Below are positions 7,863 through 46,091 of a stretch of DNA of 46,091 nt, piece by piece. Every line of letters begins with the position of its first letter. Position 1 is the stretch's first letter. This DNA comes from Chiloscyllium plagiosum (Eukaryota): NCBI RefSeq assembly GCF_004010195.1, contig NC_057752.1, forward strand, positions 12,435,925 through 12,482,015. Reading direction: 5' to 3'. Both the position numbers and the translations under genes were made by a program. Below the pieces are notes generated by a model. That model was not told where the DNA came from and made no database searches. It saw only the letters and a program-made list of their open reading frames with translations.

Positions 7863-7958
7863 AGATTTAGAATTGTGACTTGATGGAGAAGGAAGAGGTA
7901 TCAGTATTGAATTTCAGAATGTAGGCCCAGGATGACTGGAAGTGCAACTATTTGTGTT

Positions 7959-9564
7959 GATTGGAGTCACATTTCGCAACAGTAGAGGTTTATAAAATCA
8001 GAATGGTCATGGATAGGGTGAGTAGTCAGGTCTTTACCCCAGGTTAGGGGCGTCCAAAACTAGAGTGCATTGTTTGAAAGTGAAAGGGGAAAGGTTTGGT
8101 GAGGTCTCAGGGGCACCTTTTCATGAAGAGTGTGGTGTGCGCATGGAATGAGCTGCCAGAGGAGGTGGTGGAGGCTGGTACAACTACAACATCTAAAAAA
8201 ACATGCTGGGTACTGACAGGCCTGCCGAGCTTTTCCAGCAATTTCTGTATTTGTTCAAAAATGCATTCATTTTAACACAGCTATTCTGGATAAATTAAAC
8301 ATTTTATTTTTTTTAAATGACGCAGGGACATATAAACCTGTCTTCAAATCGGTGAGGTAAAAACAATGACTGCAGATGCTGTAAACCAGATTCTGGATTA
8401 GTGGTGCTGGAAGAGCACAGCAGTTCAGGCAGCATCCAAGGAGCAGCGAAATCAGTGACCAAGACCATTTTCTGCTCAGGATATAACTCTGTGTATGACA
8501 GCAGCAATGATGCACCTACATGGAGCAGTTATTGTGATGGAGACATAGTTTGGACAATGTACAAGGAGACCTCACATGGTCCAGTTTGGGAGAGGATGAT
8601 ATTACTGTGTGATTCAACTCAGAGAGGGAGAAAATGTATTCTGCCCGAGAAGGAATGGTGTATTGTACTCTCTGTCCTTCATTATTCCTCATCACAGCAA
8701 TGTGTGCGATTGGAGTCACATTTCGCAACAGTAGAGGTTTATAAAATCAGAATGGTCATGGATAGGGTGACTGGTCAGGTCTTTACCCCAGGTTAGGGGC
8801 GTCCAAAACTAGAGTGCATTGTTTGAAAGTGAAAGGGGAAAGGTTTGGTGAGGTCTCAGGGGCACCTTTTCACGAAGAGTGTGGTGTGCGTATGGAATGA
8901 GCTGCCAGAGGAGGTGGTGGAGGCTGGTACAACTACAACATCTAAAAAACATGCTGGGTACTGACAGGCCTGCCGAGCTTTTCCATCAATTTCTGTATTT
9001 GTTCAAAAATGCATTCATTTTAACACAGCTATTCTGGATATATTAAACATTTTATTTTTTTTAAATGACGCAGGGACATATAAACCTGTCTTCAAATCGG
9101 TGAGGTAAAAACAATGACTGCAGATCATTTTAACACAGCTATTCTGGATATATTAAACATTTTATTTTTTTAAATGACGCAGGGACATATAAACCTGTCT
9201 TCAAATCGGTGAGGTAAAAACAATGACTGCAGATGCTGTAAACCAGATTCTGGATTAGTTGTGCTGGAAGATCACAGCAGTTCAGGCAGCATCCAAGGAG
9301 CAGCGAAATCAGTGACCAAGACCATTTTCTGCTAAGGATATAACTCTGTGTATGACAGCAGCAATGATGCACCTAGATGGAGCAGTGAATGTGATGGAGA
9401 CATAGTTTGGACAATGTACAAGGAGACCTCACATGGTCCAGTTTGGGAGAGGATGATATTACTGTGTGATTCAACTCAGAGAGGGAGAAAATGTATTCTG
9501 CCCGAGAAGGAATGGTGTATTGTACTCTCTGTCCTTCATTATTCCTCATCACAGCAATGTGTGC
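7959..9564. repeat. Tandem duplication, 749-bp unit (7959-8707 / 8708-9564), with a nested 110-bp duplication (9015-9124 / 9125-9233)
   Basis: Direct comparison. The unit contains a CR1 3' fragment, a Penelope-type tail and unique sequence. Confidence 0.95.
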
Positions 9565-9609
9565 GAGCTAAAAAAAAAACCTCTACAGTCAAAGTTACCA
9601 TTCTTGTTT

Positions 9610-11039: not shown

Positions 11040-11870
11040 ATGCCTAATTAGGAGGAGGAGCATCTGAGGCAGGTCCTGCAGCTCAACCTGCAGCAGCCTT
11101 GGAGCCGATTACTCTCCAGGACCTGGTGAACCAGCTCGCGAAATCTCGCGAGATGTTGGGGAAACAGATTGAAGTGAAGCTGGCTCCAGTCTCTCTCATG
11201 CTGCAGAAGCATTAGCAGCAGCTGGGAGACCTGGAGAAGAGCATGGATGAGGTGGAGCACAGGGTCACAGTGGTGGAAGCTCAAGGAAGAGATTCAAGTC
11301 CTGAAGACGCAGGTTCGTAATTTGCGTGACCAAGTGGATGATCTTGAAAACACGGGCAGGAGAAAACAACATTTGGATCATCGGTCTGCCTGGGGGTAAA
11401 GAAGGTGAGCTGCCTGAGGATAAAGAAGTTGAGCGGCCTGCGGAATTTGTTGAAGATTGGCTTCCGAAATTCCTTGACTTGGAGACTGTCATAAGAGGAT
11501 TGAAGATAGAGAGGGCTCACCGGGTTGCAACACGCAGTCGGGTCTGGCTCAATGCCCTCGTCCTTTCCTGGTGCGGTTCCATCATTACCGGGATAAGGAG
11601 AGAGTCATGGAGGCTTCCTGACTCTAGGGGAAGGATCCAAATGCCCTAATTTATGAGGCGCATAAGATCATGTTTTTTCAGGACTTTTTAGCGGCGGTGA
11701 TCAAGAAACGAAAATCGTATGATGGTGTCAAGAGAAGACTGAAGGAGCTTGGGATTCAGTACTCCCTGAGATATCCAGCAGTGCTTCAGATCACCTTAGG
11801 TGGATCCATGCATCTCTTTGACACATCGGAGAAGACAAGAGACTTTGTGGACAAACTAACCGAATTTTAA
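11040..11870 (+). pseudogene. L1 ORF1 (coiled-coil/RRM/CTD), disrupted
   Basis: VDDLENT.., NNIWIIGLPGGKEG, IERAHRV and FFQDF..KKRKSYDGVKRRLKELGIQYSLRYPAVL; several stops and frameshifts. Confidence 0.9.
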
Positions 11871-14051
11871 CAAAAATGTAGTATGTATAAATATTGTTGC
11901 TCGTGTATGCGTTTAGCATTCTGTAAAAGAAATGGAGGATATCCGGTTGGAGCTTTGGTTTTCCTTTTTTTTCCTCTATTGATAATAATTTGGTTCAAAT
12001 TATGTCTGGCGGTTGTTAAGATGTACATTTAAATTTCTAAGTTAGGACATACCAAAGGATGTGTGGGGTATTTATTCCCCCTTTTTAAATGATAGCATGA
12101 TTTTATTCATATTGCTATTCTATGGGGTGTTTATTCTTTTTAGCTTGTGCTTGCTATGTGGCTCTAGCTGGGAGAAGTGAAGGTGGTTGAGATGGTTAGA
12201 TGCCTATTTATGGGCAGTTAGTGACGGGTAGTTGCCCCCCACCCTCCCCGGTAGGGGGTGAGTTCCCCCTACTCAGCGCTATTGGCGCTTTATATGTTGG
12301 TTTGTTGACTGTTTTTTGTTGTTTTTTTACTTTTAATAATTTTGTATGTTTGTTAAATGTAGTGGTTTTATATTTGGTGGACCATGCGACACTAAGGCTC
12401 AGCAATTTATGGTTCGGGTTTTTCCTCTCTGGAAATTAAATGTAATGGCAGAAGATTATGGCTAATGCTTTGATTAAATGGTGTACCTGGAATATCAAGG
12501 GAAGTCATTAACCAACTAAGAGGAAGAAGGTACACTTGAGTCTGAGAAAGGAGAAGGTGAATATTGGTTTGTTACAGGAGTCACATTTGGATGACAATGA
12601 GCATGTGAAATTACAGCAGAATGGCTTTGACAGAGTTTATTTTTCATCATACAATATCAGAAGTAGAGGAGTGGCTGTATCTGTAAGGAAAATTCTCTCA
12701 TTTAAATTGTTGGACGTTTTAAAAACACATACGGGAGGTTTGTAATTCTTAAAGCCTTAATAAATGGGGAAGAATATGGCATTTTAAATGTTTATTGTCC
12801 CCCAGCTCATCCTCTTAAATTCTTGGTAGATGCTTTTTCTAAACTGATAAGTCTCAAGTCTCGGCACATCATTATAGGGGGAGATTTTAACTGCCTCATG
12901 GACCCCACAGTAGACAGGTTGCCTAAAGGTCCCTCGATACCCTCTGCACAAACTAAATAGTTATTAGGTCTGTGTGGGGAATTAGGGTTGGTGGACGTCT
13001 GGAAGTATCTCCACCCTTCAGGTACGGATTTCACGTTTTTCTCCAATTCGCATAAATGTCACACAAGGACTGATTTTTTTCTGACCCCTGTCGTAACCCT
13101 GGATCTGGTGGCATCCTGTACGATTGGTAATATTGCCATCTCTGACCATGCTCCAGTTTACCTCATGGTTAAAATTAATGATGTTACAATGGATTCCATG
13201 TACTGGCGAATGGACCACTTTATTCTCATGGACATAAATATGCAGATTATTTCTCTAGGGAATTTCGGGCATTCCTAGACATCAACATAGGCTCGGTTGA
13301 TCGCTCATCTGTTCTCTGGGAAACTGCCAAAGCTTATGCCAGAGGGTTAGTTATTTCATATTCCACCAGTAGGAAGCAGCAGAAGAGTGAGCAGGAACGT
13401 CTCTTTAAAGCACGTTTGAAAGCAGCCGAGAAGGCCTATTTTGACAGATTCTCCTTGGTCAAACTACAGAGGATTACGGCACTGTGGTCGACACTAAATT
13501 CCGTGCTCATGCAGATGGCAAAGAAGGAGCTGGCTTTTGCAAAGCAAAGGTTATACGAGCATGGTAATAATCCGGCAAATACTTAGCATACCTTGCCAGA
13601 AAGGGAAGTGCCCCACAAACCATGACAGCAATTAGGGAAGGGTCTGGGTACCAAACGTGATTCTAAAAAGATGAATGTGGCGTTCCAGAGATTCTAAACT
13701 AAGTTATATCAGTCTGAGAATTGTGAGGAGGGGCAGGAAAAAATGGAATCCTTTTCTAGAGATCTGAAGCTCCCAGGTACGACTCCCGAACAACAGTCCT
13801 TTCTCAATGCCCCATTATCAGAGCAAGAAGAGCAGGAAGCTGTGAGGCAGCTTCAGAGTGGAAAGGCGCCCGATCATGATGGACCTCCTAGTGAATTCTA
13901 TAAGGATTTTATAAGTATACTGTCAGGCCCGATGCTGAATATGTTTAATGATTCATACAGGCATGTTTGTCTCCCACCATCTCTGAGAGAGGCCAATATT
14001 TCACTTATCCTTGAAAAAGGGAAGGATCCGGAAGACTGTGCTTCATACAGG

Positions 14052-16889
14052 AGAAAGTGAGGACTGCAAATGCTGGAGATCAGAGCTGAAAATGGGTTGC
14101 TGGAAAAGCACAGCAGGTCAGGCAGCATCCAAGGAGCAGGAGAATCGACGTTTCGGGCATGAGTCTTTCTTCAGGAATGAGGAAAGTGTGCCAAGAAGGC
14201 TCAGATAAAAGGTAGGGAGGAGGTACTTCGGGGAGGGGCGTTGGAAATGCATTAGGTGGAAGGAGGTCAAGGTGAGGGTGATAGGCCGGAGATGGGGGTT
14301 GGGGCGGAGAGGTCAGGAAGAAGATTGCAGGTTAGGAAGGCGGTGCTGAGTTTGAGGGATTTGACTGAGACAAGGTGGGGNNNNNNNNNNNNNNNNNNNN
14401 NNNNNNNNNNNNNNNNNNNNNNNNNNNNNNNNNNNNNNNNNNNNNNNNNNNNNNNNNNNNNNNNNNNNNNNNNNNNNNNNNNNNNNNNNNNNNNNNNNNN
14501 NNNNNNNNNNNNNNNNNNNNNNNNNNNNNNNNNNNNNNNNNNNNNNNNNNNNNNNNNNNNNNNNNNNNNNNNNNNNNNNNNNNNNNNNNNNNNNNNNNNN
14601 NNNNNNNNNNNNNNNNNNNNNNNNNNNNNNNNNNNNNNNNNNNNNNNNNNNNNNNNNNNNNNNNNNNNNNNNNNNNNNNNNNNNNNNNNNNNNNNNNNNN
14701 NNNNNNNNNNNNNNNNNNNNNNNNNNNNNNNNNNNNNNNNNNNNNNNNNNNNNNNNNNNNNNNNNNNNNNNNNNNNNNNNNNNNNNNNNNNNNNNNNNNN
14801 NNNNNNNNNNNNNNNNNNNNNNNNNNNNNNNNNNNNNNNNNNNNNNNNNNNNNNNNNNNNNNNNNNNNNNNNNNNNNNNNNNNNNNNNNNNNNNNNNNNN
14901 NNNNNNNNNNNNNNNNNNNNNNNNNNNNNNNNNNNNAAGGGGGGAGGTGTGGGCGCAAGTTTTGCATTTCTTGCGGTTGCAGGGGAAGGTGCCGGGAGTG
15001 GAGGTTGGGTTGGTGGGGGGTGTGGACCTGACGAGGGAGGCACGGAGGGAGTGGTCTTTTTGGAACGCTGATAGGGGAGGGGAGGGAAATATATCCCTGG
15101 TGTTGGGGTCCGTTTGGAGGTGGCGGAAATGACGACGGATGATACGCTGTATATGGAGGTTGATGGGGTGGTAGGTGAGGACCAGTGGGCATCTGTCCTG
15201 GTGGCGATTGGGGGTTGGGGCTCAAGGGCGGAGGAGTGGGAAGTGGAGGAGATGCGGTGGAGGGCATCGTCAATCACGTCTGGGGAGAAATTGTGAGCTT
15301 TGAAGAAGGAGGCCATCTGGGTTGTACGGTATTGGAACTGGTCCTCCTGGGAGCAGATGCGGCAGAGATGAAGGAATTGGGAATTACGAAGGAGTGATGT
15401 CCTCCCTGAACGACTTCTCTTTGCAATCCTCCCTGAACAACTTCTCTTTCCAATCCTCTGCCTGTCCCCCTTAGTCCAAGACCTCCCCACCCCAGTTCGG
15501 GACACCACCCAGGCCCTCCACCTCCTCCATGATTTTCGCTTCCCCGGTCCCCAACACCTTATCTTCACCATGGACATCCAGTCCCTGTACACCTCCATCC
15601 CTGATCACAAAGGACTCAAAACCCTCCGCTTCTTCCTTTCCCGCCGTACCAACCAGTACCCTTCCACTGACACCCTCTATCGACTGACTGAACTGGTCCT
15701 CACCCTGAACAACTTCTCTTTCCAATCCTCCCACTTCCTCCAAACCAAAGGAGTAGCCATGGGGACCCGCATGGGCCCAGCTATGCCTGCCTCTTCGGAG
15801 GATATGTGGAACAGTCCATTTTCCGTAGCTACACTGGCACTAACCCCCACCTTTTCCTCCACTACATCGATGACTGTATCGGCGCTGCCTCGTGCTCCCA
15901 CAAGGAGGTTGAAGAGTTCATCCACTTTACCAACACCTTCCATCCCGACCTCAAATTCACCTGGAACGTCTCAGACTCCTCCCTCCCCTTCCTAGACCTT
16001 TCCATTTCTATCTCGGGCGACCGAATCAACACGGACATTTACTATAAACCGACCGACTCCCACAGCTACCTAGANNNNNNNNNNNNNNNNNNNNNNNNNN
16101 NNNNNNNNNNNNNNNNNNNNNNNNNNNNNNNNNNNNNNNNNNNNNNNNNNNNNNNNNNNNNNNNNNNNNNNNNNNNNNNNNNNNNNNNNNNNNNNNNNNN
16201 NNNNNNNNNNNNNNNNNNNNNNNNNNNNNNNNNNNNNNNNNNNNNNNNGGATCCTTCCATATCCGCCACAAATTCACCTGCACCTCAACACACATCATTT
16301 ATTGCATCCGCTGTATCCGATGTGGCCTCCTCTATATTGGGGAGACAGGCCGCCTTCTTGCGGAATGTTTCAGAGAACACCTCTGAGACACCCGGACTAA
16401 CCAGCCCAACCACCCCGTGGCTCAACACTTCAACTCCCCCTCCCACTCCACCAAGGACATGCAGGTCATTGGACTCTTCCTTCGCCAGACCATAGCAACA
16501 CGACGGTTGGAGGAAGAGCGCCTCATCTTCCGCCCAGGAACCCTCCAACCACAACGGATGAACTCAGATTTCTCCAGCTTTTTCATTTCCCCTCCCCCCA
16601 CCTTGTCTCAGTCAAATACCTCGAACTCAGAACCGCCTTCCACACCTGCAATCTTCTTCCTGATCTCTCTGCCTCCACCCCCACTCTGGCCTATCACCCT
16701 CACCTTGACCTCCTTCTACCTATCGCATTTCCAACGCCCCTCCCCCAAGTCCCTCCTCCCTACCTTTTATCTTTGCCTGTTGGACACATTTTCCTCATTC
16801 CTGAAGAAGGGTTCATGCCCGAAACGTCGCTTCTCCTGCTCCTTGGATGCTGCCTGACCTGCTGCGTTTTTCCAGCAACACATTTTCAG
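14052..16889. mobile_element. Penelope retroelement (family A) in inverted tail-to-tail form
   Basis: 16-bp TSD CTGTGCTTCATACAGG (14036-14051 and 16890-16905). Plus arm: RT (MDIQSLYTSIP, GVAMGTRMGP, YIDD at 15863-15874, YYKPTDSHSYL) and GIY-YIG (IIYCIRCIRCGLLYIGETGR). Left arm (14052 to about 15390) is the 3' part in reverse. Confidence 0.92.
16801..16828 (+). ncRNA. Minimal hammerhead ribozyme motif in the Penelope terminal repeat
   Basis: CUGAAGA-A-GGGU(UCAU)GCCC-GAAA-C-GUC. The inverted copy at 14147-14174 has a damaged stem II. Confidence 0.7.
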
Positions 16890-19489
16890 CTGTGCTTCAT
16901 ACAGGCCCATCTCGCTCTTAAATGTGGACTTTAAGATCCTCTCGAAGGCTCTTGTGTTAAAGCTAGAGACTGTGTTACCCTCTATTATTAAAGAGAATCA
17001 GACGGGCTTCATAAAGGGTCGCAGATCCTCCAACGACGTTCGGAAGCTGCTTAACGTAATTCAAGCATGACCACAGCAGTCAATACAGGGATTGGTGATT
17101 TCTTTAGATGCAGATAAGGTATTTGACCAGGTTGAGTGGCCGTACCTTTTATATACTCTAGACCAGTTTGGTCTGGGTGAAGTTTTCATAAGATGGATAA
17201 AGGTTCTCTACAGTGTACCTCCCGCTGCGGTCATTACCAACGGGGTACGATCAAGCAATTTTAATATTTCTAGGGGCAGCCGGCAGGGCTGTCCCTTTTC
17301 ACCATTACTTTTTACGTTGGTGATTGAAACGTTGGCAGCGGCCATTGATGGGGATCTCAATATATCAGCTTCAAAAGTGGGGTCAAAATTACATATGATC
17401 TCGCTGTATGCAGGTCATGTTGTAATTTTCTTTACAAATCCAGCAGTCTCAGTGCCTTGCCTGATACAATGCATTCACGCGTTTGGCGCTTTTTCAGGGG
17501 GAAAGATTAATTTTGCTAAGTTAGAGCTATGCCTGTGGGTGGTCTTACGAAAGAGTTGGCTCTTGAGAGTGACTATAGATTCCCATTTAGGTGGTCACAG
17601 GGGGGTTTTGTGTATTTGGGCATATTCATTACTCCAATTCTGGATTGTCTGTTCAAAGCCAATTTTACTCAATTATTTGAAAAAAATAAACAAGTTCTTC
17701 AAAGATGGGAGGCACTTCCAATCTCATGGTTGGGTTGGATAGCGCTTATTAAGATGAATCTTCTCCCTCGTTTGCTACACCCTATATGGATGCTCCCCCT
17801 GATTTTCAATAAACAAACGCTGAGGAGACTGAACAGTTGGTTCAGCTCTTTTATCTGGCACCATAAACGGCCCCTCATTAAATTAATCAAACTGCAGTTG
17901 CCTCACAGATTGGAGGGAGTAGATCTTCCGGACATTAAAAATTACCAATTAAGCTCGTTTTTGACCTACGTAAGTGATTGAGTTTGTGTGGACCCTCTTT
18001 TAATATGGCTAGATATCGAAGTCTCCCAGGCAAGGTGCCCCCTTACTGGTTTGCTGTTTTTGGACAAAGTGAGGACAGTTAAGTCATATTGCCATAACCC
18101 AATAGACATCAATACTGTTAAAGCATGGCGGGCAATTCGGCAGAGGGAAGGTAATATTGGTAAAACATCTTTATTTACACCTTTAGTGTGTATGCCGAGT
18201 TTTCAACCAGGTATGATAGAGTCAGGATTTAAATGTTGGGTAGAGAGGGGTATATCTTGCATGAGCGATTTATTTGAGGGAGATGTAATGATCTCCTTCT
18301 ATCAGTTAGTATGGAAGTACGAGTTACCTAACATAGACCTCTTTGTTTTTTTTTAAAGTTAGGGATTTTATTCAAAAAAGACTTCACTTTTGACTGATCC
18401 CTACAAATCTGACATAGAAAGCGGGGTACTAAGGGCTAAGAGCACACTCTCTGTCAGGACTCTATATAACCAATTGCGGGGTGCCACCTCAGACGAGTCT
18501 GATCGACTCTGCAAGACGTGGGAAAGAGACCTGGGTGTCGACTCTGCAAGACGTGGGAAAGAGACCTGGGTGTTCAAGTTTCTTCAGAGGCATGGGAGGA
18601 TATTTGGGAGAATGTAAGGAAGATAGCAATTTGCAATAGAACCCGTGCTTTACAGTTGCAAATTCTCCACAGGGTCCACTTAGCCCAGACCGTTTGTCAA
18701 AATTTAAACTGGGGACACCTTCAGCATGTCCCGAATGTCAGGTCTGTACGGGTATTCTTACCAATTGTCTTTGGTCGTGTGACAGGCTTCAAACATATTG
18801 GAGCGCTGTGGTGGATGCAATGGAGAGGGTTTTAGGTGTAGGCGTGGAGAAGGACCCTATTTCGCTCCTTTTGGGCCTACCTATTGCATTTTATGCAGAC
18901 TTGCATGAGGAAATACTTTTCAATATTCTTACATTCTGTGCAAAGAAGAATATCTTGCTAGGTTAGGTTTCAGAACCCCTCCCCCCACCCCCTGACACCA
19001 GGCTTGTCGGGTTGCCGGAAGATTGTTATGGAGCATATTTCCCTGGATTTTCTCACCAATATGATACACCACAAAACTGAGAATTTTTACAAGATATGGC
19101 AACCCTTTTTGAAATACCTGGACATAGATTTATCTGCCACACGAACAAGGTCTTTTATATCGCCGTAACGATTGTGTTTCATGATTCCAATATCCAGGGA
19201 AGAGGAACTGTGAATTTATGAGTGTTTTGTTTGGCTGGGCTGAGTTAACACTATTTATTTGTTTGCTGTTAGGTATCTAGTTAGTTAGTTAAATAGCTAG
19301 TTTCGTTTTTTTTAATTTTATACTTCTCTATATATGTTTATTCATTCGTATATGAGGGTGGGTTGGGGAATTTTTTTATTATTTGGGTTTAGTTTTGTAC
19401 TATTTTTGTATTTTTTGAATTGCATTGTTTTGTGTTTGTTGTAATATTTAAGAATCTATTTTTTGATAATAAAAATATATTATAAAAAA

Positions 19490-20598: not shown

Positions 20599-21128
20599 GC
20601 AATGTGACTGGTCAAACTATTCGTTGTGAAGCAAAACACAATTTATTTAAACACGACAGATAAAATGAAAACAAAGAAAGACGAATTTAGAATAAGGTAA
20701 TTCTATTGGACAAGTTAACAGAATAATAGATCTAAGAGCTATTACTAATGAACTGTTCAAATATAGGAAAATCGCATAAACACAGCCCCTGGCAGAAAGG
20801 AAAATGCAGACCCAGAATGTCACAAACATTTCTCCAATCCAGGAATTAAAAACTGCATATAGAGAGAGTAGCAGCCTGGAGACATTCACCGAAGCTTCCA
20901 ACTCTGTTGAGACCCCAATAGTTTCTGATGTTACTGAGAAACCAAACCCCAGAGATCCTACTCTCTGAGAGCTGGCCACACACATTCAGCCTGCATTAAA
21001 ATTAACCCAATGCCTCCCTAGCTGTTTACTCAAGTGGCCTTAACTAACCAGCTTGGAAACGGTCATTCAATCCCTCTCTGAAAAGAAATAAGGACAAAAT
21101 AGCCTCTTAAAGCTGCAGCATCATCACA
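20598..21128 (-). mobile_element. Truncated LTR
   Basis: GACTGGTCAAAC..AAGCAAAACAC and terminal GCAGCATCATCACA, shared with the LTRs at 308-1015 and 37844-38452. Confidence 0.65.
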
Positions 21129-21149
21129 CTTATCAGCACATCGAGCTGT

Positions 21150-21460
21150 AAACAGGAACCAGAGATAACCCAATCAGGCCCTTGGCCCTGCCCAATCGGA
21201 CGAGGAAGAAGCCATTCAGTCCATGAGTCACTGACACAGGAACAGTAGGAGTAATTCAGCCCCTTGAGTCTCTTACACAGGAAAATGAGGACGCCATTCA
21301 CCCCTTTAAGTCACTTCCACAGCAACAGGATGAGGCCATTCAGCCCCCTCAGTCGCTTACACAGGAATAGGAAGAGGCCATTCAGCCCCTTAAGTCATTT
21401 ATGCAGGAACAGGAGGAGGCCATTTCCCCCCTCAACTCATTTACAAAGGGACAGAATGAG
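21150..21460. repeat. About 42-bp minisatellite derived from a CR1 3' tail
   Basis: Units ACAGGAACAGGAGGAGGCCATTCAGCCCCT..AGTC..TT. The same family occurs at 42780-42960 and 43986-44166. Confidence 0.8.
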
Positions 21461-21469
21461 GTAGTTGAT

Positions 21470-21822
21470 GCTGATTCCTGATGAATGGCTTATGCCCAAT
21501 CCTCATTTTCCTGTGTAAGAGACTCAAGGGGCTGAATGACTCCTACTGTTCCTGTGTCATTGACCCATGGGACTGAATGGCTTAATCCTCGTCCGATTGG
21601 GCAGGGCCAAGAGCCTGATTGGGTTATCTCTGGTTCCTGTTTAACAGCTCGATGTGCTGATAAATGTGATGATGCTGCAGCTTTAAAAGGCTATTTTGTC
21701 CTTATTACTTTTCAGAGAGGGATTGAATCCTCCTGCTCCTCGGATGCTGCCTGACCTGTTGTGCTTTTCCAGCAATCCACTCTCTACTCTGATCTCCAGC
21801 ATCAGTAGAACTCACTGTCTCC
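21470..21822 (+). mobile_element. Penelope terminal fragment interrupted by an inverted copy (21500-21728) of 21065-21291
   Basis: ATTCCTGATGAATGGCTTATGCCC, then the insert, then TCCTGCTCCTCGGATGCTGCCTGACC..CTCACTGTCTCC. Confidence 0.85.
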
Positions 21823-22549: not shown

Positions 22550-23781
22550 TTTACTCTATCCTCATGTTACCATCATCCGTGTCTGTGGTGAGGTGATCAT
22601 TCCTTACAAAGTAGATCAAATCTGTACAGAGTGCCCCTAATGCTCTCTCAGCAAGGCTCTACAACAGCAGGAAGATGGCTTTACTTATGTACACGAATCA
22701 TCTTACAATGAAGGACAGCATACCATTGTCTGCACCCATTGCTTACACAGGGATAGATTCGGAGCAGTCAGCATAGACTTATGAGTGGGAGATCATGCTT
22801 CCCAAATTTGTTAGAGTTCTTTGATGAATTGACCAAGAAGGTTGATATGAGGGCCGAGCGGTAGACGTAGTTTCAATGGATTTCAGTAAGACCTTTGATA
22901 CGGTTCCACATGAAAGGCTGCTCTGGAAGTTCCGTCACGTAAAATTCTGGCGGAAATGGCCAGTTGGCTTGATGGTAGGAAGCAGAGGGTTCAGTAGAAG
23001 GATGCTTGTCAGACCGGAGGCTGGGTGCATGGCTGTTTGTTATCTATGATTTGGTTGAGAATGTGCAAAGCATGATTTGTAAGTTTGCAGATGACACTAA
23101 AATAAGTGGTATCGTGATCAGTGAGGAAGTTTAACAGATATTGCAACAAGACATTAATCAGGTGGTTTACTCTATCCTCATGTTACCATCATCCGTGTCT
23201 GTGGTGAGGAGATCATTCCTTACAAAGTAGATCAAATCTGTACAGAGAGCCCCTAATGCTCTCTCAGCAAGGCTCTACAATAGCAGGAAGATGGCTTTAC
23301 TTATGTACACGAATCATCTTACAATGAAGGACAGCATACCATTGTCTGCACCCATTGCTTACACAGGGATAGATTCGGAGCAGTTAGCATAGACTTATGA
23401 GTGGGAGATCATGCTTCCCAAATTTGTTAGAGTTCTTTGATGAATTGACCAAGAAGGTTGATATGAGGGCCGAGTGGTAGACGTAGTTTCAATGGATTTC
23501 AGTAAGACCTTTGATACGGTTCCACATGAAAGGCTGCTCTGGAATTTCCGTCACGTAAAATTCTGGCGGAAATGGCCAATTGGCTTGATGGTAGGAAGCA
23601 GAGGGTTCAGTAAAAGGATGCTTGTCAGACCGGAGGCTGGGTGCATGGCTGTTTGTTATCTATGATTTGGTTGAGAATGTGCAAAGCATGATTTGTAAGT
23701 TTGCAGATGACACTAAAATAAGTGGTATCGTGATCAGTGAGGAAGTTTAACAGATATTGCAACAAGACATTAATCAGGTGG
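22550..23781. repeat. Tandem duplication, 616-bp unit (22550-23165 / 23166-23781)
   Basis: Direct comparison; few substitutions. Confidence 0.95.
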
Positions 23782-26317: not shown

Positions 26318-27459
26318 CCTCAACTCACATACATAATCCAAGTGTGAGATCTCTGACTTTGGTCCTGTCAATTTATATTTAATTTATTTTAAGGACCTCT
26401 CACTTCATGTAAGAATATTAACTCAAAGGAAGTAAACTGAGTAGATTTATTTGGGGCATCTCCGATGGCAAGCAATTTAATGGAACCCTTTATCATAATC
26501 ATTCAGGCAATCTTGACATTATGCTGTTAACATGGTCTTCAGCGTTTGATGCTAATTTTCCAAGGCTCTCCGGGATTCAGGATGGGATACACTTGATTCG
26601 AAGTGCTATATGCCTAAGCTATCCATCACTTCTTAAAAGGTAAAATGAGGTAAAATGAGAACCTTGATCTGACTGAATCTCTCTGCGTAACCCACAGTGA
26701 GTAAAGAAAGCTACCAAATCCTCCACCTCCCTTTTTTGCCTTTACACTCCATAATGGAATTGCCTCTGGAAATCTGGGAGACACATCCATTATCGACATC
26801 AAATATTAGTTTCCACTTTTAGTTTAGAAAGAGGAGCTACACAATTAGTCATAACGTAAGGGAAATGTTCTTCGAATGCAGGAATTGGCCTCAACTCACA
26901 TACATAATCCAAGTGTGAGATCTCTGACTTTGGTCCTGTCAATTTATATTTAATTTATTTTAAGGACCTCTCACTTCATGTAAGAATATTAACTCAAAGG
27001 AAGTAAACTGAGTAGATTTATTTGGGGCATCTCCGATGGCAAGCAATTTAATGGAACCCTTTATCATAATCATTCAGGCAATCTTGACATTACGCTGTTA
27101 ACATGGTCTTCAGCGTTTGATGCTAATTTTCCAAGGCTCTCCGAGATTCAGGATGGGATACACTTGATTCGAAGTGCTGTATGCCTAAGCTATCCATCAC
27201 TTCTTAAAAGGTAAAATGAGATAAAATGAGAACCTTGATCTGACTGAATCTCTCTGCGTAACCCACAGTGAGTAAAGAAAGCTACCAAATCCTCCACCTC
27301 CCTTTTTTGCCTTTACACTCCATAATGGAATTGCCTCTGGAAATCTGGGAGACACATCCATTATCGACATCAAATATTAGTTTCCACTTTTAGTTTAGAA
27401 AGAGGAGCTACACAATTAGTCATAACGTAAGGGAAATGTTCTTCGAATGCAGGAATTGG
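26318..27459. repeat. Tandem duplication, 571-bp unit (26318-26888 / 26889-27459), inside the Gypsy integrase
   Basis: Direct comparison; near-identical copies. Confidence 0.95.
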
Positions 27460-28315
27460 CAACAAAGGTCCTGGTTTTATTACTGCCTGTGACTTACCGA
27501 CCATTTGGCATGTATGACATTTAGAACAAAAAATAACCACGTCCTTGTGCACTCCAGGCCAATAGAAATGCTTATGTACCTTAGCCCGAGTCTTCCGTAC
27601 ACCTAGGTTATCTCCTATAGTTAGTTCATGTGCTACCCATAACACTGTATGCTATCCGTAACACTATATGCTACTAGTAACACAATCTGTTGCAGTTCTG
27701 CCCATGTGTCTTCCGCACTAAACTATTGTGATCTCTATTTCAATTTTAGGATTTTATCTTTAAGTTAGTAACGTTCGACAATATATTCTGTTTCATTTTC
27801 TCTGTGTGTATATGTGTAAGTGTGTGTATCTGTTGTAAGTCCGTTAGCCTTTCAGGACAAAACACCTCTGCCTGACCCTCTGCCTCTTCAGGTATTTTTC
27901 TGCACTGTTACATCAAACAACATGTCACTTAACTGAACATCAACTCCTGTGTCTTTTGTTTTTCCTTCCTGCTGTAACTTATGACAATGGGATCTTGTTA
28001 CCACACAGTCTGGAAAAAAATCTGAATATTTTTCTTTCAATTCCCCAGTTCCTTAGTCTTCCTTTGACTTCTCCACCACAGGGTTGCCTCTCCCACCTTG
28101 GATCCTGTTAAATCGTTCCCAAGCACAAACTGCATTCCTGGAACTAACACTCTGTCACTCACTCTCACCGTTACTTCCCCAATCTTGATTTGGCACTCCA
28201 ACTTGATGTCACACAAGAGAATGCTTAATTTTTGTCCCCATTCCACAAGTTATCATGCTCTTGAGTAACATGTCAGAAAGAGTGAAAATACTTCCATCTC
28301 TTATTATTAGAGCGG

Positions 28316-28973
28316 GAGAGAAAGTGAAGACTTCAGATGCTGGAGATTAGAGTTGAAAAGTGTGGGGCTGGAAAAGCACAGCAGTTAGGCAGCATCCGAG
28401 GGGCAGGAGAATCGATATTTCAGGCAAAAGCCCTTCATCAGGAAAGTGGGGGGTAAGGGAGGGGGAAGAGGTTGAGAAATAAATAGAAGGGTGGGGGTGG
28501 AGCTGGGTTGAAGGGATCTTGGAAGGCGATAGGTAGATGCAGGTGGGTGAGGATGATGATAGGTCGAAGAATTTGGTGAAGTGGATAGGTGGTAGGACAG
28601 CTGGAACTCTCAGACTATACCACATCAACATCGACATAACCAATTTCCAAATCTCCCGTTCCCCAGCTTCATCCCAGATCCAACCGTTCAACTTAGCACT
28701 GCCCTCTTAAACTGTCTTAATTGTCCATCTTCCTTCCCACCTATCCAGTCCACCCTCCCTTCCGACATATCACTATCACTCCCACCTACATCTTCCTTTC
28801 GCCCTCCCAGTGACCCTTCCCCCAGCCTAGCTCCTCTCCTCCGATTTATCTTTCAGCCCTCTTGTCCGCCGCCACATTCCTGACGATGGGTTTATGCCTG
28901 ATATGTCGATTGTCCTGCTCTTCGGATGCTGCCAGATCTGTTGTGCTTTTCCAGTGCCCCAACTTCTCAACTT
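28316..28973. mobile_element. Old Penelope (family A) tail-to-tail inverted fragment nested in the Gypsy element
   Basis: Minus arm 28316 to about 28605 and plus arm about 28606-28973. Each carries a decayed hammerhead (28414-28441 minus; 28880-28907 plus). Confidence 0.8.
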
Positions 28974-30338
28974 TTAGAGACTGAGCAGATCCCGTATCTC
29001 ACAAAATTGTATCTGCTTGTCCTTCTCTCCCTATTTTTCTGAGTAAACTTCAACCACAGAGGCGAATTATTTATAGAGATCAGGCACTGCCTCCATACAC
29101 AGCCCCTGCCTCGGCAGTGCATTCTTCTGCAGCTCCTCGGCTCCAATTGGAGTCTCCTTTACCAGTTTCACTGATGTCACTGGGCTTAGCCTCTTCCACA
29201 CATTTCTTTTCAAAGTGCGTTCCTTCACTGCCCAGCGCTGTGTGTCCTAGCTGATTGCAGTGAAAACACCTTTTTCCCAGTGCCCTTCTTAAACCATCGG
29301 CACTGCAATTTTATGCTTTTCACTCCCTTATAGTGAGAACACCTGAGGCCTTTCATCCCCTTTCAACCCCTTTGGGCTTCATTTTTCACCTGTGGTAAAC
29401 TATTGTCAGTGTTCTCTACTGTTCGATTTGTCGTGTAGGATCTCTCCTTCTCCCAGTTTCTATCTCTCACAGGATGAAAATCCTCCCAGAAGCAAAATAT
29501 CATCTCATGCACCAATACATATTTACCTGCCATTTCTGCCGCGCTTTTCATTTCTTGAACTTTCTGATCATTCACATGAATTCTTACCATCTCTGGAAGT
29601 GAGTATTTAAACTCCTCCAGCAGAATGGTCTCCCTTCGAGCCTCACAGATCTTATTCATTTTCAAGGCCAGCACCCATCTATCAAAATGACTGTGTTTAA
29701 TTCTTTCAAATACAACATCAGCTTGCCCTGCTTCCGTCTCTTTATTTCTGAACCTCTGTCTATATGCTTCTAGTACCAACTCATAAGCACTCAAAATAGC
29801 ATGTTTGAAATCTACATAATCTCTTGACCTCTCATCTGACAGCGCTGCACAAACCTCACTAGTTGTGCTCACCAGCTTAGTCTGAACTAGCATTACCCAC
29901 AAGCTCACTTGACACGCCATCTGCCGAGCTATGTTTTCAAAAAATTTCAAAGATTTTGTCATTTTCTCAGCGAAATATGGCAATGTATTAACATAGCTGT
30001 ATACATAGCTTGACATTCTCCCTTCATCTCCATCCTGTTAATTTAACTTTCTTGTCTAATTCCCAACTTCTGAATTTCAAATTATCTCTCTTTTCTTCCT
30101 CTCTTTCTCTTTCTCTTTCTTCTCTCTCTGTTTCCGTCTCTTTCTTTATCTTCTAACTCGAGTTGCCATTTTTGCAATTTAAGTTTTTTTCTAACTCTAT
30201 TGCACTTGTCTGTTTCTCTGATACATCAAAGTGCTTGACCAACTCCATTACAACTTCAGCTTTCCTTTTCTCCTTGATTAAACCCAATTCCAAACTATTT
30301 GCTAATTCTAAAACATGTCCGTCTTTTGTCTTTCTAAA

Positions 30339-30682
30339 CTTTCTTGGAAAATTTGAGAACCTCTTTAGTAATGTTAATTAAAATCACACACCCAGAAAAG
30401 CTCACCTCACATCATAATCTGTTAAAATGCGAGCGACAGAGAACTCCTAAATTCCACTAATAAACAAAAAAATAACAAGTTATATGTATGCAAGTTGGCT
30501 TGCTGAGCTTCTTTCTTGGAAAATTTGAGAACCTCGTTAGTAATGTTAATTAAAATCACACACCCAGAAAAGCTCACCTCGCATCATAATCTGTTAAAAT
30601 GCGAGCGACAGAGAACTCCTAAATTCCACTAATAAACAAAAAAATAACAAGTTATATGTATGCAAGTTGGCTTGCTGAGCTT
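30339..30682. repeat. Tandem duplication, 172-bp unit (30339-30510 / 30511-30682)
   Basis: Direct comparison. The unit spans gag, LTR and Penelope junctions. Confidence 0.95.
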
Positions 30683-34761: not shown

Positions 34762-35437
34762 GGTATTGTGAACATCTGGGGCCAAGCACTGATCCCTTTG
34801 ATACTTCGGCAACCTTCCTCTGTTAAAACAAAAGGTTTCCAAAAATGTCTTTATTTCGTGAATCTGGGTGTGACTGGCTGGGCCAGCATTTCTTGCCCGT
34901 ATCTAGTTGGCCTTTTAGAAGGTGCTGGTGTGTTGCCTTGTTGAACTGCTGATTTCCACCTGCTGTGGTTGACCTCCAATGCCATTACGATGGAATTCCA
35001 GAATTCTGACCCAACGACAGTGAAGGAACGGTGATATATTTCCAAGTCAGGATGATGAATAGCTTGGAGGGGAACTTGAAGATGGTGGTGTTCCTTTACA
35101 GGTATTGTGAACATCTGGGCCAAGCACTGATCCCTTTGATACTTCGGCAACCTTCCTCTGTTAAAACAAAAGGTTTCCAAAAATGTCTTTATTTCGTGAA
35201 TCTGGGTGTGACTGGCTGGGCCAGCAGTTCTTGCCCGTACCTAGTTGGCCTTTTAGAAGGTGGTGGTGTGTTGCCTTGTTGAACTGCTGATTTCCACCTG
35301 CTGTGGTTGACCTCCAATGCCATTACAATGGAATTCCAGAATTCTGACCCAACGACAGTGAAGAACGGTGATATATTTCCAAGTCAGGATGATGAATAGC
35401 TTGGAGGGGAACTTGAAGATGGTGGTGTTCCTTTACA
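34762..35437. repeat. Tandem duplication, 339-bp unit (34762-35100 / 35101-35437)
   Basis: Direct comparison. Confidence 0.95.
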
Positions 35438-41085: not shown

Positions 41086-41667
41086 AACACCCCTTGTCAA
41101 AAAAGGAACATTCAGACATACATTCTTGCATACAGTTGTCCAATCGAGTAGGAAACAGTATCAAGTGAGATTTCAGCGAGACTAGCATCGACGGATAACT
41201 TATTAAAACTGCCAACCCTTCTGTGTTCATGAGAGACTGAGAGAGAGTGTGTGTGTGCGCGATACGCGTGGTTAAATGCGAAGCTCATTGTTTCAGAAGG
41301 AACGCACATGGAGGAAACTATTTTAAATACGAACAACAGGCAGGCTTCTTGTTAATCAACAGAGAGAACGAGGGAGGCTTCATGGACAGATGAGGTAAAT
41401 TGTTTGAGAATGTTAAAAAAAAGGCATTGCCAGACATAATAGCAATATACATCGGCGTGCACATGAATGACAGATGGATGAGGGTTTGGTGTGAATTCGA
41501 ATCAGATTTGCTTCNNNNNNNNNNNNNNNNNNNNNNNNNNNNNNNNNNNNNNNNNNNNNNNNNNNNNNNNNNNNNNNNNNAGTGGCAAGAAGTGTGGACT
41601 ATATGAAAGAACAATACTACAGTCATAATTGGTTTATACAAATCAAACTCTGGACAGTGACGCTTGC

Positions 41668-41925
41668 CAGGAACACCAACGATAGCCAGGAAGGGAAAAT
41701 AATAGTATTGAATAATGAGAACAACGTAATAGATCTGCGATGATACTGATAAAAAATCAAATGCAGAATGATACCAAACATAATCGGATAAGCGCCTGTC
41801 GATTGTTGGAATATTCAGTCTAATATTCTCAGATTCTGATCCATTGCTGAAACATTCCAGTCTAATGTTCTCAGATTCTAATCCATTGTTGGAATATTCC
41901 TGTCTACCGTTCTCAGATTCTGATC
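41668..41925 (-). pseudogene. Disabled exon 1 of a GPR139/GPR142-like class A GPCR
   Basis: Minus strand reads DQNLRTVDRNIPTMD*NLRTLDWNVSAMDQNLRILD/fs/NIPTIDRRLSDYVWYHSAFDFLSVSSQIYYVVLIIQYYYFPFLAIVGVP, then G|GCAAGC. The TM1 motif YYPxLAxxGxP ends at a phase-1 junction, as in GPR139. Lesions: TAG at 41878-41880, a 1-bp deletion near 41816 and a GC donor. Confidence 0.8.
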
Positions 41926-42037
41926 TCTCGTCCCCTTTCTCTGGAGCTGCTGATCCCTGTCAGTGCTGTCGGTGATGCTCCCGCTTATGTTTGGGATAAC
42001 ACATTGAACGTAGCCCATTTAAATTAAAAGATGGAAA

Positions 42038-42057
42038 CCCTCCACTGGGATAATTAG
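42038..42057. promoter_or_regulatory. Adjacent O/E(EBF)-like and homeodomain sites upstream of the GPCR exon
   Basis: TCCACTGGGA (one mismatch to TCCCNNGGGA) is directly followed by TAATTA, about 115-130 bp upstream of the coding repeat. Confidence 0.35.
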
Positions 42058-42575
42058 AATCCATGGAGGCTGGCATTAATCACAGTCACTGAACAAATAG
42101 GCTCAGTTAACCAGTTCCATACATCACTTTTCATAATACTATAAAAGAGAACATTAACTGGGTTTGGATGGAATGGATGAGGGTTGCTGAGGGATGGATC
42201 ATAAACCTTTCAATCTTTTTAATCTTTTCTGCCTTGTATATGAGAGTATTAACAGGACACTGCAGGGATCTATATATGTTCCACTCTGTTTATGAAAAGA
42301 AGCAGTTATAAAATAACAAATCGGCTGCATAAAAAAAGTCGGGTGGGAAAGATTCGAGACACCTTAACACAAAGTACGGTACTTATTGACCAGTGTGAGG
42401 CTACTCCTGGTTTTAATGCCCTGTTATCAAATCCTTGCATAACCTTGAGACAGAGCATTGTGACTGCTGAACAGGAGCAGACCGAAGCAATTCTGTCCCT
42501 ATGGACCTATTACAGAGGGATAAGTGAAGACAATTCAGCTCATATTAGCCTGTTGCTACTTGAAAGGTGGAAAGC

Positions 42576-44976
42576 TGGAATATTGGCACATTTTGTCAAC
42601 AGAATCATTCAGAACAAAGGGATGTGTGGCTGCAGCTGTATGAAGTGATACTGAGAGGGAACCTGGAGTACATTGTGTTGTTTGTGTTTCTGTAACTGAG
42701 AAGGAATGGGCCTCCATTAGATACAGTTTACTGGCTGCTCATAATCCACGGGTTACTGTGTCATTTAATGTCGCGGATCTGTTACACAGGGACAGGAGAA
42801 GGCCATGAAGCCTCTCGAGTGTGTTATAGAAGAACAGGAGGAGGCCAATAAGCCTCTTGAGTCTATTACAGATGGACAAGAGAGGGTTATTCAGCCTCTC
42901 CAGTCGTTTACAGAGGGACAGGAGGAGGCCATTCAGCATCTTGAGCCTGTTACAGAGGGGCAGGAAGTGTGTATTTAACATGTCAAGTCTGTTACGCCAA
43001 ATATTAGTTTTAAACTAGTTGTGGAATAGGAAAGACCTGATGTAAACATTAAAGTTCTAACTTTGACTAAGGCCAATTTTGAAAGTCTTGGCGAATCCTG
43101 TGAAAGGCTGATGGGGATACCCTATTCACATGTAAAGGGATGGTTGGAAAACGCAAGGCCATCAAAACTTGGGTTCAGAGAGTCCAGAGCCAACGTGCTC
43201 CTATTAGTGAGATGGGCAAGGCTGGTGGGTGCAGGGAGTGCTGGATGGCTAGATATATTGTTGCTCTGGTCAAGGTCAGGTAGGAGGCATATGTCAGGTA
43301 AACAGAGCTGAGAGCAAGTGAATCCCGAGAGGAGTATAAGGGCAGTTAGTGCATAGTCAATGGGGAAATCCGGCCAGAAAATTGTGTACATGAGATGGCT
43401 TGAGAAATAGAGTTAACGAGGCATTGAAGAAATTCTACAAATCCGTTAATGGCAAAATATTAACTAGGGAGAGAATAGGGCCCCCTTAAAGATCAGGAAG
43501 GCTAGCTATGTGTGGAACCACACGAGATGGGAGGGATACGAAACAAGTATTTCTCCTCAGTATTTAATGTCGAGGAGGTTACAAGAGCGAGAGAATGAAG
43601 AAATATAGTGATACCTTGAAAAGTATCTATATTAAAAGGAGATGTAGGACATTTTAAAATATATAAAGGCGAGCAAATTCCTGGGACCTGATCAGTTGTA
43701 TCCCAGAAGTATGAGGGAAACTAGGAAAGAGTTTGCTCAGCATTTTGCTGATATACCTGTATCATTGATTTCCACAGGTGATGGAATATTGGCACATTTT
43801 GTCAACAGAATCATTCAGAACAAAGGGATGTGTGGCTGCAGCTGTACGAAGTGATACTGAGAGGGAACCTGGAGTACATTGTGTTGTTTGTGTTTCTGTA
43901 ACTGAGAAGGAATGGGCCTCCATTAGATACAGTTTACTGGCTGCTCATAATCCACGGGTTGCTGTGTCATTTAATGTCTCGGATCTGTTACACAGGGACA
44001 GGAGAAGGCCATGAAGCCTCTCGAGTGTGTTATAGAAGAAAAGGAAGAGGCCAATAAGCCTCTTGAGTCTATTACAGAGGGACAGGAGAGGGTTATTCAG
44101 CCTCTCCAGTCTTTTACAGAGGGACAGGAGGAGGCCATTCAGCATCTTGAGCCTGTTACAGAGGGGCAGGAAGTGTCTATTTAACATTTCAAGTCTGTTA
44201 CGCCAAATATTAGTTTTAAACTAGTTGTGGAATAGGAAAGACCTGATGTAAACATTAAAGTTCTAACTTTGACGAAGGCCTTTTTTGAAAGACTTGGCGA
44301 ATCCTGTGAAAGGCTGATGGGGATACCCTATTCACATGTTGGAAAACGCAAGGCCATCAAAACTTGGGTTTAGAGAGTCCAGAGCCAACGTGCTCCTATT
44401 AGTGAGATGGGCAAGGCTGGTGGGTGCAGGGAGTGCTGGATGGCTAGATATATTGTTGCTCTGGTCAAGGTAAGGTAGGATGCATATGTCAGGTAAACAG
44501 ATCTGAGAGCAAGTGAATCCCGAGAGGGGTATAAGGGCAGTAAGTGCATAGTCAATGGGGAAATCCGGCGAGAAAAATGTGTACATGAGATGGCTTGAGA
44601 AATCGGGTTAACGAGGCATTGAAGAAATTCTACAAATCCGTTAATGGCAAAATATTAACTAGGGAGAGAATAGGGCCCCCTTAAAGATCAGTAAGGCTAG
44701 CTATGTGTGGAACCACACGAGATGGGAGGGATACGAAACAAGTATTTCTCTTCAGTATTTAATGTCGAGTAGGTTACAAGAGCGAGAGAATGAAGAAATA
44801 TAGTGATACCTTGAAAAGTATCTATATTAAAAGGAGATGTAGGACATTTTAAAATATATAAAGGCGAGCAAATTCCTGGGACCTGATCAGTTGTATCACA
44901 GAAGTATGAGGGAAAGTAGGAAAGAGTTTGCTCAGCATTTTGCTGATATATCTGTATCATTGATTTCCACAGGTGA
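42576..44976. repeat. Tandem duplication, about 1.2-kb unit (42576-43781 / 43782-44976)
   Basis: Direct comparison; scattered substitutions and an about 11-bp deletion in copy 2. The unit holds the 42-bp minisatellite and a CR1 fragment. Confidence 0.95.
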
Positions 44977-45084
44977 TGTGTCAAAAGACTTGGAGGGCTG
45001 CTAACATAGTGTCGTTTTTTAAGAAAGTAAGGAAAAAAAAGGTAACCCTAGATCGGTGAGCATGACGTCAATGGTGACTAAATT
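44215..45084 (+). mobile_element. CR1 fragment (EN-RT linker to RT start); duplicate at 43010-43781
   Basis: ILTRERIGPP, GPDQLY, DLEG/ANIVSF, GNPRSVSMTSMVTK (NYRPVSLTS-like). Confidence 0.8.
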
Positions 45085-45904
45085 NNNNNNNNNNNNNNNN
45101 NNNNNNNNNNNNNNNNNNNNNNNNNNNNNNNNNNNNNNNNNNNNNNNNNNNNNNNNNNNNNNNNNNNNNNNNNNNNNNNNNNNNNNNNNNNNNNNNNNNN
45201 NNNNNNNNNNNNNNNNNNNNNNNNNNNNNNNNNNNNNNNNNNNNNNNNNNNNNNNNNNNNNNNNNNNNNNNNNNNNNNNNNNNNNNNNNNNNNNNNNNNN
45301 NNNNNNNNNNNNNNNNNNNNNNNNNNNNNNNNNNNNNNNNNNNNNNNNNNNNNNNNNNNNNNNNNNNNNNNNNNNNNNNNNNNNNNNNNNNNNNNNNNNN
45401 NNNNNNNNNNNNNNNNNNNNNNNNNNNNNNNNNNNNNNNNNNNNNNNNNNNNNNNNNNNNNNNNNNNNNNNNNNNNNNNNNNNNNNNNNNNNNNNNNNNN
45501 NNNNNNNNNNNNNNNNNNNNNNNNNNNNNNNNNNNNNNNNNNNNNNNNNNNNNNNNNNNNNNNNNNNNNNNNNNNNNNNNNNNNAGCTCTGGCCAAATCC
45601 CTCTCTCATTACCCTTATTTAAGCTTGGCACAGTTGTTTCTGACCCAAGTCACTCACTCTCAAACTGAATGCCAAATGTTATGGTCGCTGTTTTCTTTTG
45701 GAATAGCCTTTGTTGTCACATATACCCAATGAGATCAGTTGCCAATTACAGTGCCATCTTAGTTATACGATTTAAACAATGCAGAAATGAAGTGTCCAGC
45801 ACGACAGAGATAGAAGGGCAGTACAGTGGACCCACACCGGCACTAAGCTTCCAGTACACACCAGGCCCTGTCTCCACACCGAGCCGGTGACATACCACTC
45901 AAGC

Positions 45905-46091
45905 AGGCTGTCACAGCAACGCTGGGAGTTGGGGAGGCTGACACACCAACACTGGGAGGCCGGGAGGCGGTCACACCAACACTGGGAGTTGGGGAGGCTG
46001 ACACACCAACACTGGGAGGCCGAGGGGCTGACACACCAACACTGGGAGGCCGGGAGGCTGTCACACCAACACTGGGAGGCCGGGAGGATGT
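45905..46091. repeat. 30-bp G-rich minisatellite extending past the window end
   Basis: At least six copies of ACTGGGAG(GCC/TTG)GGGAGGCTGWCACACCAAC. Confidence 0.9.

Follow-up and report, generated by a model that had tools for sequence, protein, structure and literature searches.

A probable non-functional first exon of a shark-expanded, GPR139-related class A receptor family in Chiloscyllium plagiosum

The window, by which we mean the whole 46,091-nt stretch of DNA analysed here, carries on its minus strand (41928-41668) coding exon 1 of a shark class A GPCR family, comprising a repeat-containing N-terminus and the first transmembrane helix (TM1). The TM1 peptide quoted in a preliminary description of this DNA occurs letter for letter and ends at 41669 on the minus strand, in a frame that is open from 41959 to 41582; a frame ending in a clear TM1 is thus present, as that description had proposed. 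Its further statement that the frame has no usable start codon is true of the TM1 frame, where no ATG lies ahead of TM1, but not of the repeat frame, which has ATGs at 41886 and 41844. Both are in good context (a purine at -3 and G at +4), and the second lies downstream of a TAG stop. Exon 1 ends at 41668 in phase 1 and is followed by GC at 41667-41666. The downstream sequence contains 1,296 N in four gaps, the first of which begins 87 nt past the donor. The features of the locus, from the promoter side to that gap, are as follows.

42018..42023, minus strand: putative promoter, a TATA-like element of the gene cassette, altered here
41929..42017, minus strand: conserved 5' leader, probably untranslated, matching N-terminal extensions of some predicted shark proteins
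41803..41928, minus strand: 42-nt repeat unit (14 aa), present three times and built of two diverged 21-nt halves, from Tandem Repeats Finder and the register
41878..41880, minus strand: premature TAG, two codons past ATG 41886, where the family has CAG
41815..41817, minus strand: 1-nt deletion (frameshift) in the third repeat unit, shifting the repeat frame into the TM1 frame
41668..41815, minus strand: juxtamembrane N-terminus and first two thirds of TM1, to the end of exon 1 (phase 1), from phmmer and the family profile
41662..41667, minus strand: splice donor with GC for GT and a poor downstream match, where the family has GT
41581..41661, minus strand: start of intron 1, still family-like and running to the assembly gap, covered by family contigs in four of four runs
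41515..41580, no strand: 66-N assembly gap, with scaffold continuity past it unverified

To compare this copy with family DNA, we placed contigs from four public sequencing runs of three organisms on 41581-42400 (820 nt) at a likeness of at least 82%. The runs contributed 2,759, 4,399, 1,917 and 2,414 contigs, which covered 30 of 30 bins, indicating that the whole cassette, including the promoter side and the start of the intron, is highly repeated. Because summed contig depth does not measure copy number, no copy number was derived from it. The AT-rich hexamer at 42018..42023 lies about 130 nt upstream of the repeat's first ATG; family contigs carry a slightly different hexamer there, and loose ends fall at 42023 in 35, 54, 26 and 45 contigs of the four runs. 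In the leader, the matched protein extensions sit in different frames and family contigs have 1-nt indels. At 41988-41986 the family has an ATG and the window ATA, near the presumed transcription start and, at this copy's spacing, in the repeat frame. No start at this position in the repeat frame was visible among the 124 family N-termini compared; the ATA is possibly a fourth lost start, or a start that was never used.

The identity of the exon was established by protein comparison. When the 49-aa piece of the TM1 frame was searched with phmmer against 1.84 billion representatives (E<=0.001), we found five matches, with E from 9e-6 to 1e-3. Four are members of the shark receptor family: three NCBI shark proteins with a 7tm_1 domain, and one unnamed read-through of a family exon 1. 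The GPCR match anticipated for the repaired peptide was therefore recovered; the fifth match, an unrelated repeat protein, was set aside. Using a profile of 81 full-length members, picked for likeness over TM1-TM5 from the top of 1,411 clusters (see below), we obtained 35.1 bits for the same piece, against a best of 10.4 bits in 1,000 shuffles (888 reported), so the TM1 likeness is not a product of chance. A six-frame profile scan of the window gave exon 1 a score of 32.6 bits over profile positions 6-60. By both phmmer and profile, the exon-1 product is homologous to the N-terminus and TM1 of the shark family. Its nearest relatives are whale shark and zebra shark members, with 56-60% identity over 46-50 aa, which fall in one clade of the tree.

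The donor position of the exon, with the family's GT at 41667-41666, places a phase-1 intron after the Gly-x-Pro of TM1, a position (GxP|xN) that we take to be the same as that of the intron in human GPR139. Six predicted proteins (P0059, P0064, P0105, P0115, P0117 and P0126) break exactly at this exon boundary, with either unrelated sequence upstream of it or none; as shark models that start or join at the start of exon 2, they suggest that lone exon 2 models may be common. The relatives bear the marks of class A GPCRs, namely 7tm_1, seven helices, N1.50, D2.50, a DR motif, W6.48 and Y7.53. Paralogues listed in RefSeq as 'probable G-protein coupled receptor 139' (whale shark XP_048456466.1 and XP_048455653.1; zebra shark XP_059500132.1) share with this copy the 14-aa Met-led repeat, the juxtamembrane segment and the TM1 splice point, the carpet-shark members being nearest, whereas in this copy exon 1 is interrupted by a stop and a frameshift, the donor reads GC, and exon 2 is not linked. 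Other searches were uninformative: Pfam gave no match for the exon alone, and Rfam none in the window; word-indexed protein searches with pieces of the window, which are too short for the index, returned nothing at E<=10 among six candidates in one case and no candidates in another; and a PDB sequence search with the 49-aa piece returned one match that we judged to be chance.

The family itself is large. With residues 1-215 of one phmmer match, a full-length relative, as query, a search drew 2,334 candidates and retained 1,411 protein clusters at E<=1e-5. All of the best 120 of these clusters come from sharks, nine species in total (70 from horn shark, 14 from zebra shark and 12 from whale shark), and their automatic names are GPR139 in 111 cases and GPR142 in one. 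The many shark GPR139-like paralogues that the preliminary description had mentioned thus exist, as seen both in these clusters and in the at least 1,917 contigs per run on the cassette. In the tree, the family forms species-specific clades. Among the best 120 matches, 10 of the 12 from whale shark lie on one 94-Mb sequence, and 8 of the 15 listed members of one 90% cluster lie on one 16-Mb scaffold. Pattern matches in metagenome contigs (115) and viral contigs (9) were not confirmed in any case. Lineage-specific expansion, very young duplicates and a disabled copy agree with the earlier suggestion of a birth-and-death member of an expanded family, in which copies would multiply through tandem and segmental duplication and many would die. 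The family proteins are already in RefSeq, under automatic names only. A literature search, with most subscription journals out of reach, turned up no paper describing the shark expansion; the main text of PMC11979771 does not contain '139', and 12 of the 24 whale shark supplementary files (PMC8455134) make no mention of the family.

What relation does this family bear to GPR139 and GPR142? In a search of the PDB with the family profile, GPR139 led the 43 matches, with an E of 4.9e-14 compared with 1.8e-8 for the runner-up; none of the 43 was GPR142. The family consensus and the human GPR139 chain are identical at 79 of 282 positions (about 28%, by hand count), or 20-21% in a fold alignment. 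Foldseek placed GPR139 at rank 18 amid near-equal class A scores, and with this model (pTM 0.63) the fold ranking does not discriminate among class A receptors. The description of the exon as GPR139-like therefore holds in that GPR139 is the nearest solved relative by sequence, but not in any closer sense: the distance is large and the fold search does not single GPR139 out. Judging by these alignments, we would describe the family as a divergent offshoot of the GPR139/142 branch and regard 'GPR139' as a best-hit label.

The binding pocket bears on the same question. GPR139 senses L-Trp and L-Phe, and its activation needs F109, H187, W241 and N271, according to PMC5430874. At these positions the family has Tyr (F109, 3x33), His (H187, 5x43), Trp (W241, 6x48) and Phe (N271, 7x38), so that two are identical, one is conservative and one, Asn 7x38 to Phe, is non-conservative. 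Arg 6x51 and Pro 6.50 are not kept. The family resembles GPR139/GPR142 in having two coding exons (as stated for human GPR139 in PMC7318219), His 5x43 and Trp 6x48, an aromatic residue at 3x33, and no Pro in NPxxY, which is absent from GPR139 as well. It differs in being multi-copy, in its repeat N-terminus, in its fast evolution outside the cell, and in its low identity. Two further observations concern the core: in place of Pro 6.50 the family has Val, Met, Thr or Leu, and Asp occupies the position of GPR139 H113 in 80 of 81 members. These may point to an unusual activation switch and to a cationic group on the ligand.

Outside sharks, the nearest look-alikes in a protein atlas are FMRFamide-receptor-like and Srw-bearing invertebrate GPCR clusters. 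A common origin of FMRFamide-receptor-like, MIP-receptor and Srw-type GPCRs with GPR139/142 is reported in PMC8514136, which would put these invertebrate expansions on the same deep branch, and an expansion of the FMRFamide-like/Srw-type group is described for a snail in PMC11589774. The invertebrate and shark expansions are presumably independent.

We next consider the repeat. Tandem Repeats Finder detected a 42-nt unit in 3.0 copies with 84% matches at 41802-41925, together with a weaker 21-nt sub-period, in agreement with the 21/42-bp coding repeat reported earlier ahead of TM1. In register, it consists of six 21-nt half-units running from 41928 to 41803. The encoded unit is of 14 aa, Met-led, with two diverged 7-aa halves, and its number varies between family members. 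The N-terminus had been described as a heptad repeat; we found that the unit is not a coiled-coil heptad, a reading rejected on the grounds that a structure model of a family member appears disordered there (pLDDT <50 over residues 1-16).

The same 14-aa unit is N-terminal in intact family proteins, again in variable number, and most members open each unit with Met. The length encoded by exon 1 follows a ladder: 66 of the 81 aligned members are within 2 aa of 46+14n, and exactly 60 aa, the commonest length, is found in 26. In 63 of 81 members a Met occupies the first position of the 46-aa form, and in 60 the exon-1-coded part contains one or more N-glycosylation sequons. Among 13 near-identical paralogues from horn shark the length changes in a step of 7 aa: nine have 88 aa and three have 81 aa (one was not scored). 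These observations, taken with the model, portray the repeat as an unstable, probably glycosylated tether with built-in alternative starts.

From these data we propose the following scheme for intact members. A compact promoter would drive exon 1, which would encode most of TM1, preceded by a short variable helix and by a flexible N-terminus that is usually glycosylated and holds 0 to 4 of the Met-led 14-aa units; after a phase-1 intron, one long exon would supply the remainder, from the rest of TM1 to TM7. The 21/42-nt repeat would gain and lose units by slippage or unequal crossing-over.

To ask what the living family might do, we examined where its members vary. Over the 81 members, mean entropy is 1.76 bits in extracellular versus 0.99 in intracellular parts (2.14 outside versus 1.15 inside in the part not used for ranking), and the variation lies in the N-terminus, ECL2 and ECL3. 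In contrast, the positions equivalent to the GPR139 pocket are nearly fixed, with Tyr in 71, His in 78, Trp in 81 and Phe in 75 members, in a sample chosen for likeness over TM1-TM5. The 13 very young paralogues gave no signal of diversifying selection: variable sites number 8 of 77 outside, 5 of 62 inside and 18 of 209 in the helices. On these patterns, the living family most likely consists of G-protein-coupled sensors that share one core chemistry and have diversified on their outer surface, a combination that would suit small odorants and, equally, ligands that are peptides or proteins. That the ligands come from inside the body, from microbes or from gametes has, in our estimate, slightly less than an even chance; that they are external is less probable, and that most copies are functionless is a little less probable still.

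One alternative at the level of the family is that it constitutes an unrecognised external chemoreceptor repertoire of sharks, for smell or taste, of which this exon is a casualty; we hold this possibility tentatively and think it rather unlikely. Size, clustering, lineage-specific expansion and pseudogenes would all be expected of such a repertoire, as would greater variability outside than inside the cell over the 81 members, and in these respects the family resembles the OR, TAAR, V1R/ORA and V2R families, which are likewise large and clustered with lineage-specific blooms and pseudogenes. Odorant receptors, however, vary most in the ligand pocket, whereas the pocket here is conserved in our sample and the young paralogues show no excess variation outside the cell; nor is the shark family a sequence member of any of those four. 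Further points in favour of an external role are that the nearest solved relative senses amino acids (PMC5430874), that the look-alikes include the invertebrate FMRFamide-receptor-like and Srw-bearing GPCRs, and that, of the known families of smell receptors in sharks, all but V2R are small (PMC6368271). In its fullest form, which we regard as doubtful, this idea would describe a shark repertoire of many hundred genes with an independent origin on the GPR139/142 branch, missed by smell and taste surveys; a conserved aromatic core would be paired with a diversified surface, start codons in each unit would let the N-terminus vary in length and tolerate upstream stops, and the present exon would be a fossil of turnover.

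A relative paucity of GPCRs in cartilaginous fishes is described in PMC8455134, whereas we found 1,411 clusters, with 70 of the best 120 from one species. If sensory, the family would be a new vertebrate chemoreceptor family; if immune or reproductive, it would still be among the largest undescribed vertebrate GPCR expansions.

We then assessed the fate of this copy. The stop, frameshift and GC donor that had been reported are all present (TAG at 41880-41878; deletion at about 41817-41815; GC at 41667-41666). At the stop site, the family CAG was found in 123, 122, 108 and 116 contigs of the four runs (counts up to 128), or 97-99% of depth. Behind 41815, one extra letter is carried by 11, 11, 8 and 5 family contigs, which make up the smaller share of the depth there. 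Contigs with the family GT at the donor number 46, 60, 43 and 43, at >99% of depth in all four runs, each with a small non-GT remainder. The stop, the 1-nt deletion and the GC donor are thus departures from family DNA; we think it likely that the animal's own DNA carries them too.

The three lesions are not of equal weight. Because the TAG lies upstream of the good ATG at 41844, the stop can be bypassed and kills only the longest form; a start at 41844 would yield 59 aa, where the family's commonest form has 60. The frameshift is therefore the fatal lesion. The deletion cannot be bypassed in the same manner, since no ATG follows in the TM1 frame and the family's next in-frame Met is Ile here; near DNA relatives often have Ile at this position as well. 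The proposal of a disabled copy is supported. The window also encodes Phe at a position that is Tyr in 79 of 81 members and Phe in none. Of 14 selected sites at which this copy departs from the family letter, 11 alter the amino acid, but this is weak evidence of decay: the region is highly variable in intact members too. In sum, translation from 41886 would halt after two codons and translation from 41844 would leave the frame at the deletion; beyond this, the downstream Met is Ile, the donor would be weak, and exon 2 is absent from the scaffold in this assembly.

We conclude, with a probability of about 0.8, that the locus is a non-functional copy of exon 1 from a class A GPCR gene that has two exons, is expanded in sharks and belongs to the GPR139/GPR142 branch. 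It is an ordinary pseudogene fragment of an interesting, under-described family; the exon itself is inert, and its value is as a pointer to that family. Several observations weigh against this conclusion. The comparison is with family contigs and not with the copy's own, which leaves some chance of an assembly error; the best sequencing run carries only 0.45 of the sampled words. The window contains seven near-identical tandem duplications with a draft-assembly look, among which there are six 1-nt gaps in 3,800 aligned nt. The deletion contracts a GG, and the extra letter at 41815 appears only in a minority of depth. Finally, GC splice donors can function, and a non-GT remainder is present in four of four runs.

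If the exon is a fragment, where is the remainder of the gene? Among all 140 minus-strand stop-free frames of at least 57 aa, Pfam identified no 7TM family, and the family profile, run in six frames with stops as X, scored at most 3.2 bits anywhere outside exon 1. When decayed copies of a whole exon 2 were planted, all 20 at 15-25% divergence were recovered with 42-222 bits, and those at 35% gave 7-61 bits. Because such copies are detected while the window does not exceed 3.2 bits, we conclude that no exon 2 lies in the sequenced 41.5 kb; the power of the search drops for fragments, as planted 30% pieces at 35% divergence gave 4.6-25 bits, and short old pieces would often be missed. Two candidates were rejected: the best tblastn match of the 81 exon-2 parts (32 bits at 17947-17759), which is on the strand opposite a LINE frame and has a profile score of 3.2 bits, and a frame at 45085 that resembles the beginning of exon 2 by chance, is upstream and has no profile score. 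Exon 2 may be in a gap, on another scaffold or beyond the window, or may be lost. Four brownbanded bamboo shark predictions lack exon 1, indicating that split annotation is common in this family. The orphan exon of the preliminary description is thus upheld for the sequenced window, but with the first gap so close behind the donor it may be a scaffold artefact.

An origin as a lone exon would also account for the missing part. In this alternative, the promoter and exon 1 were copied alone, by partial duplication or as a non-autonomous mobile or satellite-linked cassette, and were never accompanied by exon 2 here. Family likeness extends over all 820 nt, promoter and intron start included, the surroundings are retrotransposon debris, and the window holds no second family piece, all of which would be consistent with such an event. 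Against it, neither terminal repeats nor a target-site duplication were found around the exon, many full-length members exist, and the viral contigs contain no relative. We judge this origin unlikely; it is compatible with the pseudogene reading, which we retain.

Less probable again, with perhaps slim chances, is that the gene is intact in the animal, in which case the frameshift would be an assembly error, translation would start at 41844, the GC donor would be used, and exon 2 would lie in a gap or on another scaffold. The position of the stop upstream of a good ATG, the GG-to-G contraction within an assembly with error-like duplications, and the gap just past the donor fit this scenario, and the bamboo shark predictions provide its mirror case, exon 2 without exon 1. 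It requires three separate excuses, however: moreover, the donor is poor even among GC donors, the near-invariant Tyr is altered, and every downstream gap is nominally shorter than exon 2 (about 900 nt). We therefore continue to favour a non-functional copy.

We dismiss as very improbable the possibility that what is broken here is a genuine orthologue of GPR139 (or GPR142), sensing Trp/Phe in the brain: the automatic names and the best PDB match speak for it, but the identity of about 28% falls far below the 70% between the zebrafish orthologue and human GPR139 (PMC7318219), Phe replaces Asn 7x38, neither Arg 6x51 nor Pro 6.50 is retained, and there are hundreds of copies rather than one.

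The remainder of the window was surveyed for its repeats. A 26-bp array was absent from 42101-45084 (best autocorrelation 0.41; none by Tandem Repeats Finder). A second 42-nt tandem repeat, unrelated to that of the receptor, occurs at 42782-42965, 43977-44201 and 21203-21461. One site lies about 800 nt upstream of the receptor promoter and is doubled by tandem duplication, and the copy at 21203-21461 sits within a nested inverted repeat (21065-21728). On the minus strand, 27373-30037 contains LTR retrotransposon remnants in pieces, with a SCAN domain at 29366-30037 (E 1.7e-6), a weak zinc knuckle and, at 27373-27651, an integrase zinc-binding domain (E 7e-13). On the plus strand, about 11300-19000 is occupied by what we take to be a decayed LINE-1/Tx1-like element, with frames at 11305-14060 and 17071-18966, presumably split at about 14040-16900 by a Penelope-like element, whose long inverted arms lie at 14081-14380 and 16596-16894. 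The seven head-to-tail duplications, of 170-1,200 nt and 96-99% identity, lie at 42576-44978, 22550-23781, 26318-27460, 7953-9566, 34762-35437 and 30339-30682, and probably stem from overlapping haplotypes or faulty gap filling in a draft assembly. At the end of the window, a 30-nt GC-rich tandem array (45905-46091) continues off the last position.
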